64,000 nucleotides of DNA from Proteobacteria bacterium UBA5122 (GTDB lineage Bacteria; Pseudomonadota; Gammaproteobacteria; Tenderiales; Tenderiaceae). The DNA lies in contig DHYU01000060.1 in the NCBI GenBank assembly GCA_002415485.1, forward strand, positions 8,181 through 72,180. The letters run 5' to 3'. A model generated the notes under the pieces. It had not been told where the DNA came from, searched no databases, and saw only the letters and a list, made by a program, of their open reading frames with translations. The position numbers and the translations under genes were made by a program. This document shows positions 18,201 through 23,994 of this stretch, one piece after another. Position 1 is the first letter of the stretch; each line of letters opens with the position of its first letter.

Positions 18201-19985
18201 ATGTCGATGAATTCCCCGAGCTCAGGCCAAATCAGGTCGGATGTGTTTGATACACGGAGTGCCAGCTGGTGCACTGATATCCAGCTATGTTTGCAGGATT
18301 ATCGTGGTGAGGGCTTGTTTTCGTGCCTGGCCGCTGCCCAGGCGGTAGGTGAACGGATTGAGGCCTTGTTATCCGTGCATTCTCAGATCTTGATCGCACA
18401 TCGAGCCGCCTTGGCGGGCCAGACATCCAGCTTTGAATACGTGTTGGACGGTGATGTGTTGTTGTTGGCGGTAATGCCATTGCGCTCTGGAGATGCCATT
18501 ACCGGTACCCATGCGGTAGCACTTGATATCAGTGCCTATAAATCTGCCGAGCGTGAACGGGCCTGGTTGCAGCATCAAACCGAGTTGATTCTGAATGCGG
18601 TGGGTGAGGGCATCTACGGCATCAATGCCAATGGCAAGGCGACGTTTGTGAATCCGGCGGCCGAGCGCATGACCGGCTGGAGCGCGGAAGAGACCATCGG
18701 CAATAATATCCATTACATGCACCACCATAGTCGTCCGGATGGTTCGCCGTACCCGCATACTGAGTGCCCGATCTATCACGCCGTGCATGATGGTGAGGTG
18801 CATCATTGTGTCGATGACGAGGTGTTCTGGCGCAAGGACGGCAGTTCATTTCCGGTAGAGTATTCCAGTACGCCGATCTATGACGGTGAGTCTTTGGTTG
18901 GTGCAGTGGCGGTATTTAAAGACATCAGTGAACGCAAGCGGGCCGAGGCTGAATTGATGGCGGCGTTTCGTGAGGTAGAGCGCTTAAAAGAGCAGCTTCA
19001 GGAACAGAACGTCTATCTGCAGGAAGAGATTCGCCAGGATCACAACTTTGGTGAGATCGTCGGTGAATCGTTTTCAGTGCAGGCGATGTTGCGCAAGATC
19101 CGTCAGGTGGCGCAGACCGATGCCACGGTGCTGGTGCTCGGCGAGAGTGGTACCGGCAAGGAGTTGATCGCGCATGCGATCCACGACAATAGCCTGCGTC
19201 GCGATAAGGCGCTGATCAAGGTCAATTGTGGTGCCATTTCTGCGGGGCTGGTCGAGAGTGAGTTGTTTGGTCATGAAAAGGGTGCGTTTACCGGCGCAGC
19301 CAGTCAGCGCAAGGGGCGTTTTGAGTTGGCCGATGGTGGCACCTTGTTTCTCGATGAGGTCGGCGAGTTGCCGCTCGAGACACAGGTTAAACTGCTGCGG
19401 GTATTGCAGGAGCATGAGTTTGAGCGCGTCGGTAGTGGTGAATCGATTCGCGTCGATGTACGCATCATTGCGGCGACCAATCGTGACCTGGCCAAGGAGG
19501 TTGCGGCAGGCAAGTTTCGTGAAGACCTGTTTTATCGCTTGAACGTATTCCCCATCGATGTACCGGCGCTGCGTGATCGCAGCGGTGATGTGCCGATTTT
19601 GGCGCGGCACTTCTTGGCACAGGCGGCCCGGAGGTTTGGTAAACCGTTTAGCGGCTTTAAGGCAGGCAGCCTGGATGCGCTGCAACAATATCCCTGGCCC
19701 GGTAATATCCGTGAACTGCAAAACGTGATCGAACGGGCCGCGATTCTGGCCGATACGGCCCTGGTCGACGTTACTGACTTGCTGCCACAGACGCCGGTGG
19801 CGACGCGCAGTGTGTTGGCCTCATTGGAGGATGTGGAGCGTCATCATATCCAGCGTGTGTTGGCGCATACCGGCGGTGTGATTGCCGGGCCCAAGGGCGC
19901 GGCACTGATTCTGGGCATGCACCCGAATACGTTGCGTTCGCGTATGGTGAAGCTGGGGATTTCGTCCGGTGGCGGGGATATTTGA
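18201..19985 (+). CDS. sigma54-dependent transcriptional activator (PAS - AAA+ - Fis-type HTH), no receiver domain
   Basis: It has Walker A 'GESGTGKE', the 'GAFTGA' sigma54-contact loop, a C-terminal HTH, and a PAS domain with a His/Cys-rich patch ('[23 protein letters not shown]'). Confidence 0.9.
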
Positions 19986-20125: not shown

Positions 20126-20890
20126 TTACTTTGTGAACGTCAGCGTGATGCTGCCGAGGCCACCGTATTCCAGTGTGAACTCGTGATCAGGCAAGACCTC
20201 ATGTACTCCTGCAAATGAACCGGTGATGACGACCTGTCCGGCCTCAATGCCGATGCCACGTTCGCGCAGAAAGTTGGCCAGCCACAGCACGGGCAGAATC
20301 GGGCCTTGATTCGGATGTGTGCCCTTGAAGGTCTTGGTTCCGCCCTGGCTCAGAGTGAACTCGATCCCGGTTGCATCAATGGCCTTTGCCTTCGGAATCT
20401 CCGGGCCGAGGTACAGGCCCTGGTTGAAGAGGCAGTCGGCCAGGTTTTCCAGATAGCTGATCTCTTCCGTACCGGCATATCGGTTTTCGATCAGTTCGAG
20501 CGCCATGTGGGTGCTGCCGATGGCGGCGATGATTTCATCATCACTGTATGCGCTGTCGCGTGGGGGCAGGGCATGGGCAAAACGAAAGCCGATCTCGGGC
20601 TCGATTCGGCAGACGCCTTTTTCCAGCCGGATCGGGCAGGGGGATAGGCGATGTACGTCATCGGAGAAGATTGGCGCCACGTTCAGTCGATCACCGGCCG
20701 GTAATACAGTCTTCCAGCCACCGACACGCGCACCTCTGATCTCGCTCATGATCTGAATGCTGGCCTGTTGGATTTTTAGTGCGTCTTGCGTCGTCTCTGG
20801 CCGCAGCTGTTGCGGCAGGCGGTCTCGATTACTGGTGTGGCGGCGGTTGATCAAATATACGGCGGCGGTGTTGATGTGGTCGGTATTCAT
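20126..20890 (-). CDS. 2-keto-4-pentenoate hydratase family enzyme (FAH fold)
   Basis: The similarity runs over the whole length (for example 'GWKTVL', 'IEPEIGF', 'VVITGS'). I chose the ATG at 20890, which is preceded by GAGGA. The longer ORF call has no RBS. Confidence 0.75.
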   Translation of the reverse strand: MNTDHINTAAVYLINRRHTSNRDRLPQQLRPETTQDALKIQQASIQIMSEIRGARVGGWKTVLPAGDRLNVAPIFSDDVHRLSPCPIRLEKGVCRIEPEIGFRFAHALPPRDSAYSDDEIIAAIGSTHMALELIENRYAGTEEISYLENLADCLFNQGLYLGPEIPKAKAIDATGIEFTLSQGGTKTFKGTHPNQGPILPVLWLANFLRERGIGIEAGQVVITGSFAGVHEVLPDHEFTLEYGGLGSITLTFTK

Positions 20891-21106
20891 CTGGAGATCA
20901 TCCTCGGCGATAAGGCGCGCCATGTTACCGCTGCTGTGATTGGAATTAAAACATCTCAATCGATCGCTATTCCCTTTTCTGTGTCTAGGGTTGTTCCGTA
21001 GGCGCAGTGGTCACGATATTTCGTGGCAGTACGAAATGCCGTGTCATATTTTGTTGGCCTTGTCGCGGTGATCCCTTTTTGTCCATCGATAACCAACTGT
21101 AATCCT

Positions 21107-21268
21107 TTGGAATATCTCGTTCTCGATGTGGTTGGCACGCTGTTTGATACAGCCTCGGTACATGCGTTGAATTGCGTATGTGTTTGTAAGAGAAGTTACC
21201 GTAAGTCCGACGGTCATTCACATGACCACCCAGGCGGTCCTGTCCGAGTCTCAATGCCGCCGATTTAA
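21107..21268 (+). pseudogene. possible remnant of a HAD/haloacid-dehalogenase-type hydrolase gene
   Basis: The frame encodes 'LEYLVLDVVGTLFDTASVHAL', which matches HAD motif I of the DxYGTLFD type. The remaining ~30 codons show no similarity, and the frame stops right at a terminator. Confidence 0.3.
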
Positions 21269-21298
21269 ACGGGGACCAGATTGTCCCCGTTCTTTTTT
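21268..21298 (+). terminator. rho-independent terminator with no intact upstream plus-strand gene
   Basis: AACGGGGAC-cagatt-GTCCCCGTT followed by C-TTTTTT. Confidence 0.7.
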
Positions 21299-21331
21299 GA
21301 CGGGTAACGCGCATTGACGAGAGGAGGATGT

Positions 21332-21754
21332 ATGAGTCGGGTGATGGTGCCGCGCAAAACCGACTGGGGGCGTTTGCTGGTGGCGATGGCGGTGGGTTGC
21401 GCCATGATCCATTTCGGTGGCGTGCTGTTGGATGTGCGCCTCGAGTATTACTACGGTCTCGATACGTTTAACTGGTTTTGGGGCTTTCAACTCTATCTGG
21501 TGCCGTTCATCACTGGGGTGGTGATCGGTTTGATCTATGGCTATGGCGCGAAGTGGATCGCGCACTTCCCGCCGTTGATTGTACTCACACTGTGCATTCT
21601 GGAGACCATGTATCTGCGTGGCCTGCCGGAGGATACCTTGATGACGCCGCTCGGCTGGTGGGGGTTTTTCGTGATTCTGGCGATGGAGTTTTGTGCCTTC
21701 GGTGGCGTGATTGGTGAGTTGTACAACAAGCGGTTTGGTTATCACCGTTATTAA
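21332..21754 (+). CDS. small 4-TM membrane protein, uncharacterised
   Basis: The ATG at 21332 is preceded by GAGGAGGA. The protein has four hydrophobic helices and is aromatic/Gly-rich. Confidence 0.5.
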   Translation: MSRVMVPRKTDWGRLLVAMAVGCAMIHFGGVLLDVRLEYYYGLDTFNWFWGFQLYLVPFITGVVIGLIYGYGAKWIAHFPPLIVLTLCILETMYLRGLPEDTLMTPLGWWGFFVILAMEFCAFGGVIGELYNKRFGYHRY

Positions 21755-21792
21755 AAAAATAAAGATGTTGTTTGTAGTCTGGGGGAGTGTGA

Positions 21793-22776
21793 GTGCCTAA
21801 ACGTACGTTTTTGCTTTGGTTGCTGTGGGTGATGGTGGCTGTGTGGGTGTATTTCTCGTTCTACGACGATACCGATGTCTGGTCGTTTGTTGAGCATGAT
21901 CAGAGTCGTATGACCTGGTTGATCATCGGCATGTTTGTCTTTGGTGTGCTGTTGAGCTTGGTCTTGTGTATTCGAGTATCGTTGGAATCGGCGCGTTGTT
22001 CTGCGGTCACTGCAATGGCGCGGGATGGTGGTTTGTTTGCACTCAAGCTGGATCGGCCACGGCGCAAGGTCGATCGTTTTTTTCGTGCCTTGCGTACCAC
22101 CATTAATGGTGATGGTCAGGCCGATATCGACCAACTCCTACGCACGGAGTTTGCCGCCTATGAGCGCAGCAGCAACAACGTGGAACTGATCGGCACCTTA
22201 CTAGTAACGATGGGTCTGATCGGTACCGTGATGGGCCTGACGTTGACGCTGGCGGGCCTGACCGGTTCACTCGATGCGCTGGGGCAGGATCAGGAAGAAA
22301 TGCTCAACAGTCTGCGCCAGGCCATGGGCGGGATGAGTACTGCGTTTTACACCACATTACTGGGGGCTGTCCTGGGCGGCATTTTGTTGCGGGTGTTTGC
22401 GCAGATCACGCTCAATGGCATTGAGGATGTCTACGACAAGATGATGCAAACCTGCCTGGTGTATTGCTCTGCCGATTATAAAAAAGATATTTCGGCTGAC
22501 GTGCGTGCACTGAATAAAGAACTGGAAATCCTGGATACCAAGATTCAATACCTGCAGACCAGTTTTGTCGGTTCGGCCCATGCCTTCAGTTCCTTTCGTG
22601 ATGAGGTGCGTCGTTTAACGGTAGGTGATCAGGGCAACGAGGGTGAGTCGTTGCAGGCCTTGATTACCCAGCATCGTCAATACTGCGACACACTGCGTGA
22701 AGAGATGCGTTTGGTGTATGCACTGAACCGGCCGTGGTGGGTACGCTTCATGAGTCTGCTGCCGGGAGGCAAATAA
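21793..22776 (+). CDS. MotA/TolQ/ExbB-family proton-channel-like protein with a C-terminal coiled-coil tail
   Basis: GTG start after GGGGAG. The topology is TM1-TM2-loop-TM3-TM4. It has the family signature pair 'MGLIGTVMGL' and 'GMSTAFYTTLLGAVLGGILLRVF', then a heptad-rich tail of ~120 aa. Confidence 0.6.
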   Translation: MPKRTFLLWLLWVMVAVWVYFSFYDDTDVWSFVEHDQSRMTWLIIGMFVFGVLLSLVLCIRVSLESARCSAVTAMARDGGLFALKLDRPRRKVDRFFRALRTTINGDGQADIDQLLRTEFAAYERSSNNVELIGTLLVTMGLIGTVMGLTLTLAGLTGSLDALGQDQEEMLNSLRQAMGGMSTAFYTTLLGAVLGGILLRVFAQITLNGIEDVYDKMMQTCLVYCSADYKKDISADVRALNKELEILDTKIQYLQTSFVGSAHAFSSFRDEVRRLTVGDQGNEGESLQALITQHRQYCDTLREEMRLVYALNRPWWVRFMSLLPGGK

Positions 22777-22777
22777 G

Positions 22778-23560
22778 ATGCTGGCGCGGCGTAGGCGGGG
22801 CACGGCCAATGTGCACGAGAGTTTTTCGGATGTGGCCTTGTTGATGCTGGCAACCTTTGTCTTTTTGCTGGTCGCGATCATTATCACTGCGCGCATGCAA
22901 GAGGGCGACAACAGCCCGTTGTTGAAGCAGAACAATGCCGACATGGCCGAAACTATCAAAAGTCTGCAAGCCGAGAACGAACGTTTATACGCAGAGCGCG
23001 AGCAGCAGTACACGGTGGATGCAGAAGAACAGATCGATGAAGTGTTGAAGATGGTGGGCTTGGATTCAGCCAGTGGGCGTAAAGACTTTGATGTCTTCAT
23101 CAATGGCCTCAAGGATATTCCCGGTGACGATATTCATTTGGTCATCGATGCCACTGGTTCCATGCATGGCGCGGCGACATTCATGGTGCCGCTGCTGCGC
23201 GTGATTGTGATTCGCACCGGAAAAAAAATGGCGGCGCTGACCTGGTTTTCAGACAACACCTCAGAGACGTATACCGGCAGCATGGGAGAGGTGTTCGATA
23301 GTTTTATGAATGGCGCGCCGTTTTTTGGCAGTGATGAAACCATAGGTGCGGCCTTTACGCGGGTAGGTGAGATGTCGCCCGTGCCAGGGGCCTACATCAT
23401 GCTGGGTGACGAGCCATCGGATGATGATATCTACTACGACAAGATAGAGGCGCCAGTCTTTCCCATCGCGATTGGACGCTCTGATCCCAATACTCACTGG
23501 GAATACGGGCAGTTGGCCGAGAAGACCGGCGGCAAATTGTTACAACTGAGATTCGAGTAG
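22778..23560 (+). CDS. MotB/ExbD-like membrane anchor fused to a coiled coil and a vWA/MIDAS-like domain
   Basis: The start is 1 nt after the upstream stop and has a GGGAGG RBS. The Arg-rich N-terminus leads into a TM with Asp at its cytoplasmic end ('SFSDVALLMLATFVFLLV'). It then has a coiled coil and 'HLVIDATGSMHG' (DxTGS MIDAS-type). Confidence 0.6.
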   Translation: MLARRRRGTANVHESFSDVALLMLATFVFLLVAIIITARMQEGDNSPLLKQNNADMAETIKSLQAENERLYAEREQQYTVDAEEQIDEVLKMVGLDSASGRKDFDVFINGLKDIPGDDIHLVIDATGSMHGAATFMVPLLRVIVIRTGKKMAALTWFSDNTSETYTGSMGEVFDSFMNGAPFFGSDETIGAAFTRVGEMSPVPGAYIMLGDEPSDDDIYYDKIEAPVFPIAIGRSDPNTHWEYGQLAEKTGGKLLQLRFE

Positions 23561-23565
23561 TTACG

Positions 23566-23994
23566 ATGCGAAACAGATACTGGTCCATAATATTGGTGAT
23601 GATTTTTGGCGGGATTGTGGGCACAGGCTGCACCGAGTTTCCAAAGGAAGAAAATGCGAAACTCACAGCTAGCCAGTTTTTCCAGATGAGGCGCGATGGG
23701 AATATTGAAGAAGCATTGAATATGTTTCGCAAAGAGGCCGAGCGCCCGGGATATTGGCGGTCTCATCTGGAACATATAGAGCAGCAGCTCGGTGTGCCCG
23801 TGGCCTACGAGTTAAAATACGTGGTGGCCAATACCCGTTATCGAAGTCGAATTTTTACCCTGGACTATTCAGTGCATTATCCGAACAAACGTATCGCAAC
23901 CGAAACTTTGACCTTGTTTAACGACGGCGAAGACATGCGTCTGCAAGTGATCGCCCACGAGATCATTGCGCCGGATTTTAAATCGCTTTATTAA
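23566..23994 (+). CDS. small lipoprotein, uncharacterised
   Basis: It has the lipobox 'IVGTGC'. It is 142 aa, lies 5 nt after the upstream stop, and is AT-richer than its surroundings. Confidence 0.5.
   Translation: MRNRYWSIILVMIFGGIVGTGCTEFPKEENAKLTASQFFQMRRDGNIEEALNMFRKEAERPGYWRSHLEHIEQQLGVPVAYELKYVVANTRYRSRIFTLDYSVHYPNKRIATETLTLFNDGEDMRLQVIAHEIIAPDFKSLY

Follow-up and report, generated by a model that had tools for sequence, protein, structure and literature searches.

The stretch of DNA analysed here, called the window in the following, comprises 64,000 nucleotides (nt) of Proteobacteria bacterium UBA5122 (Tenderiaceae; contig DHYU01000060.1, positions 8,181 to 72,180) and contains a group of four genes, g1 to g4, of which the middle two encode a membrane protein of the MotA/ExbB/TolQ family and a membrane-anchored protein with a predicted vWA domain. 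All coordinates are positions within the window and refer to the forward strand unless stated otherwise. The first gene, g1 (21332-21754), encodes 140 amino acids (aa) with four predicted transmembrane (TM) helices when read from the ATG behind an AGGAGG sequence; the mechanically derived open reading frame (ORF) begins earlier, with a TTG at 21314. It is followed by g2 (21793-22776; 327 aa, GTG start), the A subunit, by g3 (22778-23560; 260 aa, ATG start), the B subunit with the vWA domain, and by g4 (23566-23994; 142 aa), a small lipoprotein with a weak resemblance to DUF4019 and DUF3887. The gaps between the genes are 38, 1 and 5 nt, and a GGGAGG sequence is located 8 nt 5' of the ATG of g3. 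An earlier note on this DNA had described these four co-directional ORFs, and the ORFs, their spacings, the GGGAGG sequence and the quoted peptides were all found where it had placed them, as were the codon of D18 in g3 (nt 22829) and the DATGS motif of the same protein (nt 23147-23161).

Searches of all four proteins with Pfam, NCBIfam, PADLOC and PHROGs yielded a family for g2 only. There are 638 homologues of g3 at E<=1e-3, all of approximately 260 aa and 50-90% identical, and 492 homologues of g2. In 86 of the 89 loci fetched g2 lies immediately upstream of g3, and the remaining three are interrupted by a contig end, which leaves 86 out of 86 testable loci with this order. The many homologues and this gene order argue that g2 and g3 are real genes and not chance ORFs. 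At the junction of the two genes Ca. Tenderia electrophaga has a 4-nt overlap compared to the 1-nt gap in the window. Each of the 89 loci possesses one g3-type vWA gene only, and no tolR, exbD or motB gene was found near the pair, neither in the window nor in the loci of close and distant relatives. The functional unit is the g2-g3 pair alone. The conserved four-gene cassette proposed earlier is not borne out: g1 adjoins the pair only in the closest clade (L004 with 90% g3 identity, L006 and L007 from Ca. Tenderia electrophaga with 64%, L092 and L093), and, counting the window, g4-like lipoproteins adjoin it in 18 out of 90 loci, mostly on the opposite strand or convergent.

By Pfam and by fold g2 is a true member of the MotA/ExbB/TolQ family. 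It matches MotA_ExbB (PF01618) with an E-value of 1.1e-10 and 41.8 bits at a cut-off of 22.9, and this family is present in 120 out of 120 g2 homologues among the matches listed. An AlphaFold2 (AF2) model built from 34 homologues (predicted local distance difference test score, pLDDT, of 76.6) shows four TM helices, followed by a tail in the cytoplasm with helices at residues 233-276, 287-311 and 315-322. When the model was compared to the PDB by Foldseek, nearly all of the best 50 matches were ExbB, TolQ, ZorA, PomA or MotA chains. The Pfam match above cut-off, the four-TM model and the Foldseek result uphold the earlier description of g2 as MotA/ExbB-like.

The channel helices TM3 and TM4 (nt 22183-22401) were located by the AF2 model, Pfam and Foldseek. 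In the alignment of g2 sequences (A2) the motifs GLIGTV(M)GL in TM3 and TAFYTTLLGA in TM4 are invariant, and so are the threonines T145, T183, T187 and T188 of these helices. We see a likeness to the pore ring of ExbB and TolQ in the GxxGTVxG motif of TM3 and the Thr of TM4. Directly after TM4, on the cytoplasmic side, a CxxxC motif (C221 and C225, CLVYC; nt 22453-22467) is nearly invariant; this would amount to ten cysteines per putative pentamer. The tail itself (nt 22468-22773) is a conserved stretch of approximately 100 aa, modelled by AF2 as a helical hairpin, and a conserved PWW-x-R motif (aa 314-320) is found at its C-terminus. A metal or redox site at the CxxxC or the PWW-x-R motif is conceivable.

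For g3 the alignment of 40 sequences (A1) reveals an N-terminus rich in Arg and Lys, followed by a TM helix much of which is invariant, including E14, F16 and D18. The position of Asp18 in the transpore helix (nt 22829-22831) is invariant in 40 out of 40 g3 sequences and in 21 sequences of a sister family described below. This is in agreement with the earlier reading of the N-terminus as MotB/ExbD-like with an Asp in the TM helix. According to the AF2 model of g3 (pLDDT 76.6) the TM helix (residues 12-41) is followed by a long helix forming a coiled coil (47-79), a helical neck (82-113) and an alpha/beta domain (118-260; nt 23129-23557). The latter was compared to known structures by Foldseek, with VWF-A2 as the first match (E 1.7e-5, target-normalised TM-score 0.55-0.59). 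The top 41 matches are all vWA domains, and further matches include TFIIH p44/p34, the MIDAS domain of MDN1, Ro60, NorD and CMG2/ANTXR. The residues D124-x-T126-x-S128 (nt 23147-23161), T188 and D211 are invariant in A1 and are placed after beta1, before alpha3 and after beta4, respectively, which is the canonical layout of an adhesion site that depends on a metal ion (MIDAS).

Judged by its model, the vWA fold of g3 is real, although cryptic, and comes with an invariant set of MIDAS residues and putative metal binding. The fold stands where an OmpA-like peptidoglycan-binding domain or an ExbD-fold periplasmic domain would be expected, both of which are absent from g3 according to Foldseek, and the claim of a vWA/MIDAS domain at this place is supported by AF2, Foldseek and the invariant residues. 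On the level of sequence the domain is well hidden: residues 118-260 of the protein in the window match no Pfam family, VWA families included. Among the 40 members we found sub-threshold matches to MotB_plug (PF13677) in 15 (best E 0.017), to ExbD (PF02472) in nine (best E 0.014) and to VWA_4 in five (E>=0.046). The g3 profile retrieved coiled-coil noise and a weak MotB-like chain (8vvi_A, E 0.27) from the PDB sequences, and a 43-column profile of the N-terminal part (A6) retrieved nothing from the same database. The g3 orthologue of Tenderia is named “VWA domain-containing protein” in UniRef.

Further support comes from distant relatives. We searched 1.84 billion cluster representatives exhaustively by profile and found just 31 at E<=1e-3; these are fragments, a few distant proteins and a single full-length cluster at 50% identity. 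Two of the distant relatives, P0148 and P0149, begin with YESFSDLIFATMAIF, continue with a coiled coil and contain a canonical VDGSGSM. Their sister family (alignment A3) comprises 22 proteins, several of which have Pfam VWA matches (PF00092/PF13519), and in hhalign it aligns with A1 along 204 columns, which cover the Asp helix as well as the MIDAS (probability 97.5%, E 5e-12). As A3 has Pfam VWA matches and aligns with A1, the vWA assignment of g3 gains transitive support. The genes directly upstream of two sister-family members encode MotA-family proteins with the same signatures as the g2 type, LLITLGLIGT and TAFYTTLLGAVLGG (E ~7e-15 against A2); these A subunits lack the long tail of the g2 type. 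Since the Asp helix, the MIDAS and a MotA-like upstream gene are shared by the sister family, the module of an A subunit and a vWA-bearing B subunit is older than the family in the window. The sister pair heads operons of five to six further genes (L090:4105-9979 and L091:4165-10181), among them a zinc-ribbon/Pro-rich TM protein, a Gly-zipper protein and coiled-coil proteins; Pfam returned Gly-zipper and coiled-coil signals only for the extra genes of both operons. The L090 operon is surrounded by integrase, Fic, transposase and methyltransferase genes.

The pair was compared to known systems, among them the stators of flagella. With MotA/MotB and PomA/PomB the pair shares the A subunit with four TM helices, the gene order A then B, and a B subunit with a basic N-terminus and a single TM helix containing an Asp of the essential type. 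The difference is that g3 has no OmpA-like domain, g2 has no conserved FliG-interacting charge pair, and there is no flagellar context. A divergent stator of flagellar or other motility would be suggested by the topology of g2, by its sequence profile, to which MotA chains are the closest solved ones over the cytoplasmic loop and TM3, and by an ARxGG(L)xAL motif which aligns with the region of MotA R90. However, g2 shows no conservation at the position which aligns with MotA E98, a peptidoglycan-binding domain is missing, no neighbourhood contains flagellar or gliding genes, and the NCBIfam models of MotA and MotP reach approximately 20 bits at cut-offs of 237-394. We therefore regard a motility stator as highly improbable. 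ExbB/ExbD-TonB and TolQ/TolR-TolA provide the best fold matches of g2, but ExbB and TolQ possess three TM helices compared to four in g2, ExbD and TolR have their own periplasmic fold, and TonB or TolA, which carries the force in these systems, has no counterpart at the locus.

Expression data are available for one organism, Ca. Tenderia electrophaga, from a biocathode metatranscriptome (PMC5371394, Table S3), given as the logarithm of counts per million (logCPM). The orthologues of g1 to g4 (Tel_04580, Tel_04585, Tel_04590 and Tel_04595; operon at L006:4571-7212) reach 11.7, 13.0, 12.0 and 10.1, with an approximately two-fold excess of g2 over g3 mRNA. For comparison, the main cytochrome oxidase reaches 13.7, Cyc1 12.4, EF-Tu 10.8, ATP synthase beta 10.5 and a triheme cytochrome, which is described as one of those with the highest expression, 10.3; the regulator neighbouring the operon reaches 7.7. 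Measured against EF-Tu, ATP synthase and oxidase, the operon from Tel_04580 to Tel_04595 is among the most transcribed loci of the organism. The electrode potential had no significant effect on its transcription (false discovery rate 0.26-0.6). The operon is not discussed in PMC5371394, the genes are unmentioned in the Tenderiales preprint, and a full-text search for the Tenderia locus tags retrieved no paper.

Taken together, we propose with moderate confidence that g2 and g3 form an ion-driven 5:2 complex: Asp18 would carry the ion within a g2 pentamer, and a coiled-coil stalk would hold a pair of MIDAS-competent vWA heads out into the periplasm. The pentamer of the four-TM protein would enclose the transpore helices of a g3 dimer, with the invariant Asp18 as the ion-carrying residue and a proton as the probable ion. 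The full conservation of this Asp and of the Thr residues in TM3 and TM4 of g2 in more than 100 sequences argues that ion translocation is under selection. The chain of g3 would then enter the periplasm with a coiled coil of approximately 30 residues, the helical neck and the compact vWA domain with its complete MIDAS. This periplasmic end may grip a carboxylate ligand on a partner via a bound metal ion, and would bind neither peptidoglycan, as an OmpA-like domain does, nor TonB/TolA, as the ExbD fold does. Ion flow would turn the g2 pentamer relative to the g3 dimer. The output could take two forms: either the work is passed to a periplasmic or envelope partner bound at the MIDAS, or the vWA head may serve as an anchor, so that the work would leave via the conserved 100-residue hairpin tail of g2 in the cytoplasm. 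In the Tenderia-like subclade a lipoprotein and a four-TM protein accompany the pair, the latter presumably taken over from operons of cbb3-type oxidases, and a sigma-54 promoter under a PAS-domain activator would drive the operon.

Several points weigh against this proposal. Analogy is the basis for the 5:2 stoichiometry and for placing the g3 helix inside the g2 pore. The Foldseek E-values of g2 are modest (best match with probability 1.0 and E 4e-3), the assignment of g3 as a B subunit comes without a significant sequence match, MotB_plug being the best as mentioned, and the first MIDAS serine of g3 is replaced by Thr (T126). There is no ligand or partner whose conservation follows that of the pair in all lineages. 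For a motor that would normally be present in few copies it is also unusual to have transcript levels above EF-Tu.

Some of these points would fit a static envelope tether or ion-gated scaffold, that is an abundant inner-membrane anchor without rotary function which would connect the membrane via its MIDAS to a structure in the periplasm or outer membrane, with the Asp/Thr pore as a mere sensor or gate of the proton-motive force. Structural proteins more typically show transcript levels as high as these, the stalk in the periplasm is short (the helix 47-79 and the neck), and there is no universally linked cytoplasmic or periplasmic partner. Still, the Asp of g3 and the TM3/TM4 Thr residues of g2 are fully conserved, and to our knowledge all characterised members of the 5:2 motor family are energy transducers. 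We thus consider a static role unlikely.

The distribution of the pair was determined in a scan of one genome per GTDB species. A relative of g3 is present in 165 species, all of them represented by metagenome-assembled genomes, and nearly all are labelled as Gammaproteobacteria (Tenderiales-like), namely Ca. Tenderia, Chromatiaceae, Thiotrichaceae and Ectothiorhodospiraceae. The flanks in the window are syntenic with L004 and L006, with the gene of a PAS/sigma-54 activator upstream and argG, Ppnp and glyoxalase genes downstream; in more distant relatives the pair is located among gltBD, hemE, mpl and coaBC. A tblastn search with g3 against plasmids and phages gave no match. The syntenic flanks and the lack of plasmid or phage relatives argue that the locus is vertically inherited core DNA and not an island, contrary to the accessory DNA suggested earlier.

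This bears on a defence function, which had been one of the proposed outputs. A Zorya-type anti-phage system would imply that a ZorAB-like motor senses a perturbation of the envelope and signals via the tail of the A subunit. The likeness lies in the MotA-family channel with a helical cytoplasmic tail of coiled-coil type, in the best PADLOC and NCBIfam matches of g2, which are ZorA models (E 2e-9 and 4.7e-5), and in the integrase, Fic and transposase genes around the sister locus L090. However, the ZorA models, like those of MotA and MotP from NCBIfam and PADLOC, match the channel helices of g2 only and remain far under their cut-offs (22.6 bits compared to 100 for NCBIfam ZorA), so that the resemblance of the tail to ZorA noted before does not extend to the tail itself, which has approximately 100 aa compared to several hundred in ZorA. 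ZorB binds peptidoglycan, and g3 matches no ZorB model in PADLOC. No gene resembling ZorC, D, E, F or G and no defence island is found at the locus; PADLOC reported no match at the system level, as had been expected. The vertical inheritance amid housekeeping genes in 165 species, the absence from plasmids and phages, and the constitutive, very high expression speak in the same direction. The defence reading is already largely refuted, and we assign it a very slim chance. We see in the pair a core envelope machine that these chemolithoautotrophs express heavily, and not a defence system.

A further hint towards a potential function arises from respiratory genes in the vicinity. The g1 family is broad and was found in 160 metagenome loci. 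Outside the Tenderia subclade its members are located inside cbb3-like oxidase operons in 78 other loci, with the order COX1, FixO-like, FixP_N-like, FixS/Q-like, cytochrome c, g1-like and FGE-sulfatase-like (L096-L171, e.g. L126:7-5681 and L109). This regular place in the oxidase operon suggests for g1 a role as a small, uncharacterised membrane subunit or assembly factor associated with the oxidase. The pair itself is accompanied in 25 loci by a truncated CcoN, Cyc1-like cytochromes and a thioredoxin-like lipoprotein, mostly divergent upstream, and in six loci by a CcoG-like polyferredoxin downstream. Overall, 32 out of 90 loci have a cbb3-linked gene within 5 kb of the pair, and so do 26 out of the 55 loci with a length of 9 kb or more; at least three arrangements occur, with the truncated CcoN and Cyc1-like cytochromes, with the CcoG-like polyferredoxin or with g1. 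Each arrangement is bound to one lineage, and we therefore regard this neighbourhood as suggestive and no more.

One could deduce from this a periplasmic remodelling machine for the respiratory chain, as a proton-powered counterpart of the pairs of a MoxR-AAA+ protein and a vWA protein (NorQ/NorD, CoxD/CoxE, CbbQ/CbbO). The vWA head would grip a subunit of a cbb3-type oxidase or a c-type cytochrome on the ATP-free periplasmic side, and the motor would power cofactor insertion, assembly or turnover in the electron-uptake chain of electroautotrophs and iron or sulfur oxidisers. Besides the gene neighbourhoods of the pair and of the g1 family, this idea draws on the presence of NorD among the Foldseek matches of g3, on the transcription of the operon on an oxygen-reducing cathode, which matches the level of Cyc1 and the terminal oxidase, and on the PAS domain of the activator. 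MoxR-AAA+/vWA pairs, too, combine a vWA/MIDAS adaptor with a partner that uses energy, and BatA and BatB are likewise membrane-anchored vWA proteins of Tenderiales. In contrast to these systems there is no AAA+ gene here, ion flow would take the place of ATP, and the TM helix of g3 is MotB-like and not a Bat-type anchor. Moreover, each neighbourhood pattern is found in one sublineage and may reflect a few ancestral rearrangements, about half of the loci have no such neighbour, the pair is approximately 0.9 Mb away from the cyc1/ccoN cluster in Tenderia, and NorD comes only as match 18 among generic vWA matches. We consider such a remodelling function doubtful. If true, it would represent a new job for the stator superfamily and answer how mechanical chaperone work gets done without ATP.

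Returning to the proposed ion-driven g2-g3 complex, its architecture is not unprecedented. The earlier note had stated that no stator-family machine uses a vWA output, but exactly this class has already been published as a prediction (PMC12204202; Mol Biol Evol 2025, Origin and Evolution of Bacterial Periplasmic Force Transducers, section 8, Fig. 4c-d). The TPH-vWA proteins predicted there in silico are TM-tethered vWA proteins which co-occur tightly with tolQ-like genes without tolR or exbD partners; they possess a conserved Asp in a TolR-like transpore helix and were proposed to form a dimer inside a pentamer (PMC12204202). A 5:2 complex of this architecture was modelled by AF3, and no phenotypes were reported (PMC12204202). 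Compared by description, g3 fits this class as a TM-tethered vWA protein with an Asp in the transpore helix beside a MotA/TolQ-family gene and without tolR, exbD or motB. The g2-g3 family differs in several respects. The published set, seeded from Idiomarina, is “predominantly found in heterologous pairs” of vWA genes (PMC12204202), whereas each of the 89 loci here has a single one. The A subunit is MotA-like with four TM helices and an additional cytoplasmic tail of 100 aa, whereas the published partners are described as tolQ-like. Finally, the g2-g3 family is taxonomically very narrow, with the sigma-54 control, g1 and g4 as additions in one subclade.

Ion-driven 5:2 motors power flagella, TonB-dependent uptake, the Tol-Pal system, gliding with the type IX secretion system, and Zorya. 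Each new output domain on such a motor revealed a new way to send energy across the envelope. In the g2-g3 family a putatively metal-dependent adhesion domain takes the place of the usual wall anchor, and this is fixed in a whole uncultured clade of chemolithoautotrophs. With 327 and 260 aa the pair offers a compact two-gene case for a structural test of the vWA force-transducer idea. Its oxidase-level expression in the sole member with transcriptomes makes it a prime target in the physiology of electrode- and mineral-oxidising bacteria, and given how strictly it is conserved, how extremely it is expressed in an electroautotroph and that respiratory genes lie in its neighbourhood, the pair is worth studying by experiment.

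The region upstream of g1 contains potential control elements. A gene at 18201-19985 (+ strand) encodes an enhancer-binding protein with PAS, sigma-54-interaction (AAA+) and helix-turn-helix (HTH) domains (Pfam Sigma54_activat E 2.6e-74, PAS and HTH_8), and the same gene precedes the cassette in L004 and in L006 of Tenderia. It is the probable activator of the g1-g4 operon. To compare the region, positions 20960-21340 of the window were aligned to the equivalent regions of L004 and L006 (alignment A4). Two palindromic boxes, CACGATATTTCGTG and ACGAAATGCCGTGTCA (21012-21046), are invariant in the three genomes and are probably the upstream activator sequence, i.e. the enhancer. Further downstream a sigma-54 promoter of the -24/-12 type, TGGCAC-N5-TTGAT (TGGCACGCTGTTTGAT; 21133-21148, + strand), differs by one mismatch from TGGCAC-N5-TTGCW; both of its elements are conserved in the window, L004 and L006, with a variable spacer. 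The stretch 20960-21331 had been regarded as gene-decay debris, an interpretation which does not hold in view of the conserved boxes and the promoter. As a general feature of the family, sigma-54 control had to be rejected, as no such promoter was found within 500 nt upstream of g2 in any of 78 loci scanned (0/78). This indicates that the control is specific to the g1-containing subclade, in which the promoter lies further upstream, in front of g1. Between the activator gene and its presumed binding sites the window contains an ORF of 277 aa on the reverse strand (20126-20959) with a weak FAA-hydrolase match (E 0.0017, under the cut-off); in L004 and L006 the equivalent spacer does not contain it.

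The leader between the promoter and g1 contains a GC-rich terminator-like hairpin (21268-21291) with a T-run (together 21268-21300, + strand), which was the best terminator-like site in the scan. The 143-nt leader (21158-21300) folds stably (z = -3.3), and Rfam gave no family match for this region. A looser version of the hairpin occurs in L004, and it is absent from Tenderia. The leader with its hairpin could be a sigma-54-dependent small RNA or an attenuator.

In the g4 family the lipobox Cys is invariant (alignment A5), and weak matches to DUF4019 occur in nine out of 13 members, in addition to DUF3887. Matches of the g4 profile to TPR proteins in the PDB were rejected as spurious single-helix matches. 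Other genes were observed next to the pair in single sublineages. A polytopic membrane protein of 496 aa without a Pfam family is encoded directly downstream of g3 on the same strand in 21 loci of one sublineage (L003:6892-8818), and in approximately 12 of these ApaG (DUF525) comes next. A bacterial dynamin-family protein (Dynamin_N, E 2.6e-15) is encoded close to the pair in seven loci of the lipoprotein-type sublineage (L046:58-2130), with the gene upstream of g2 in the loci shown.

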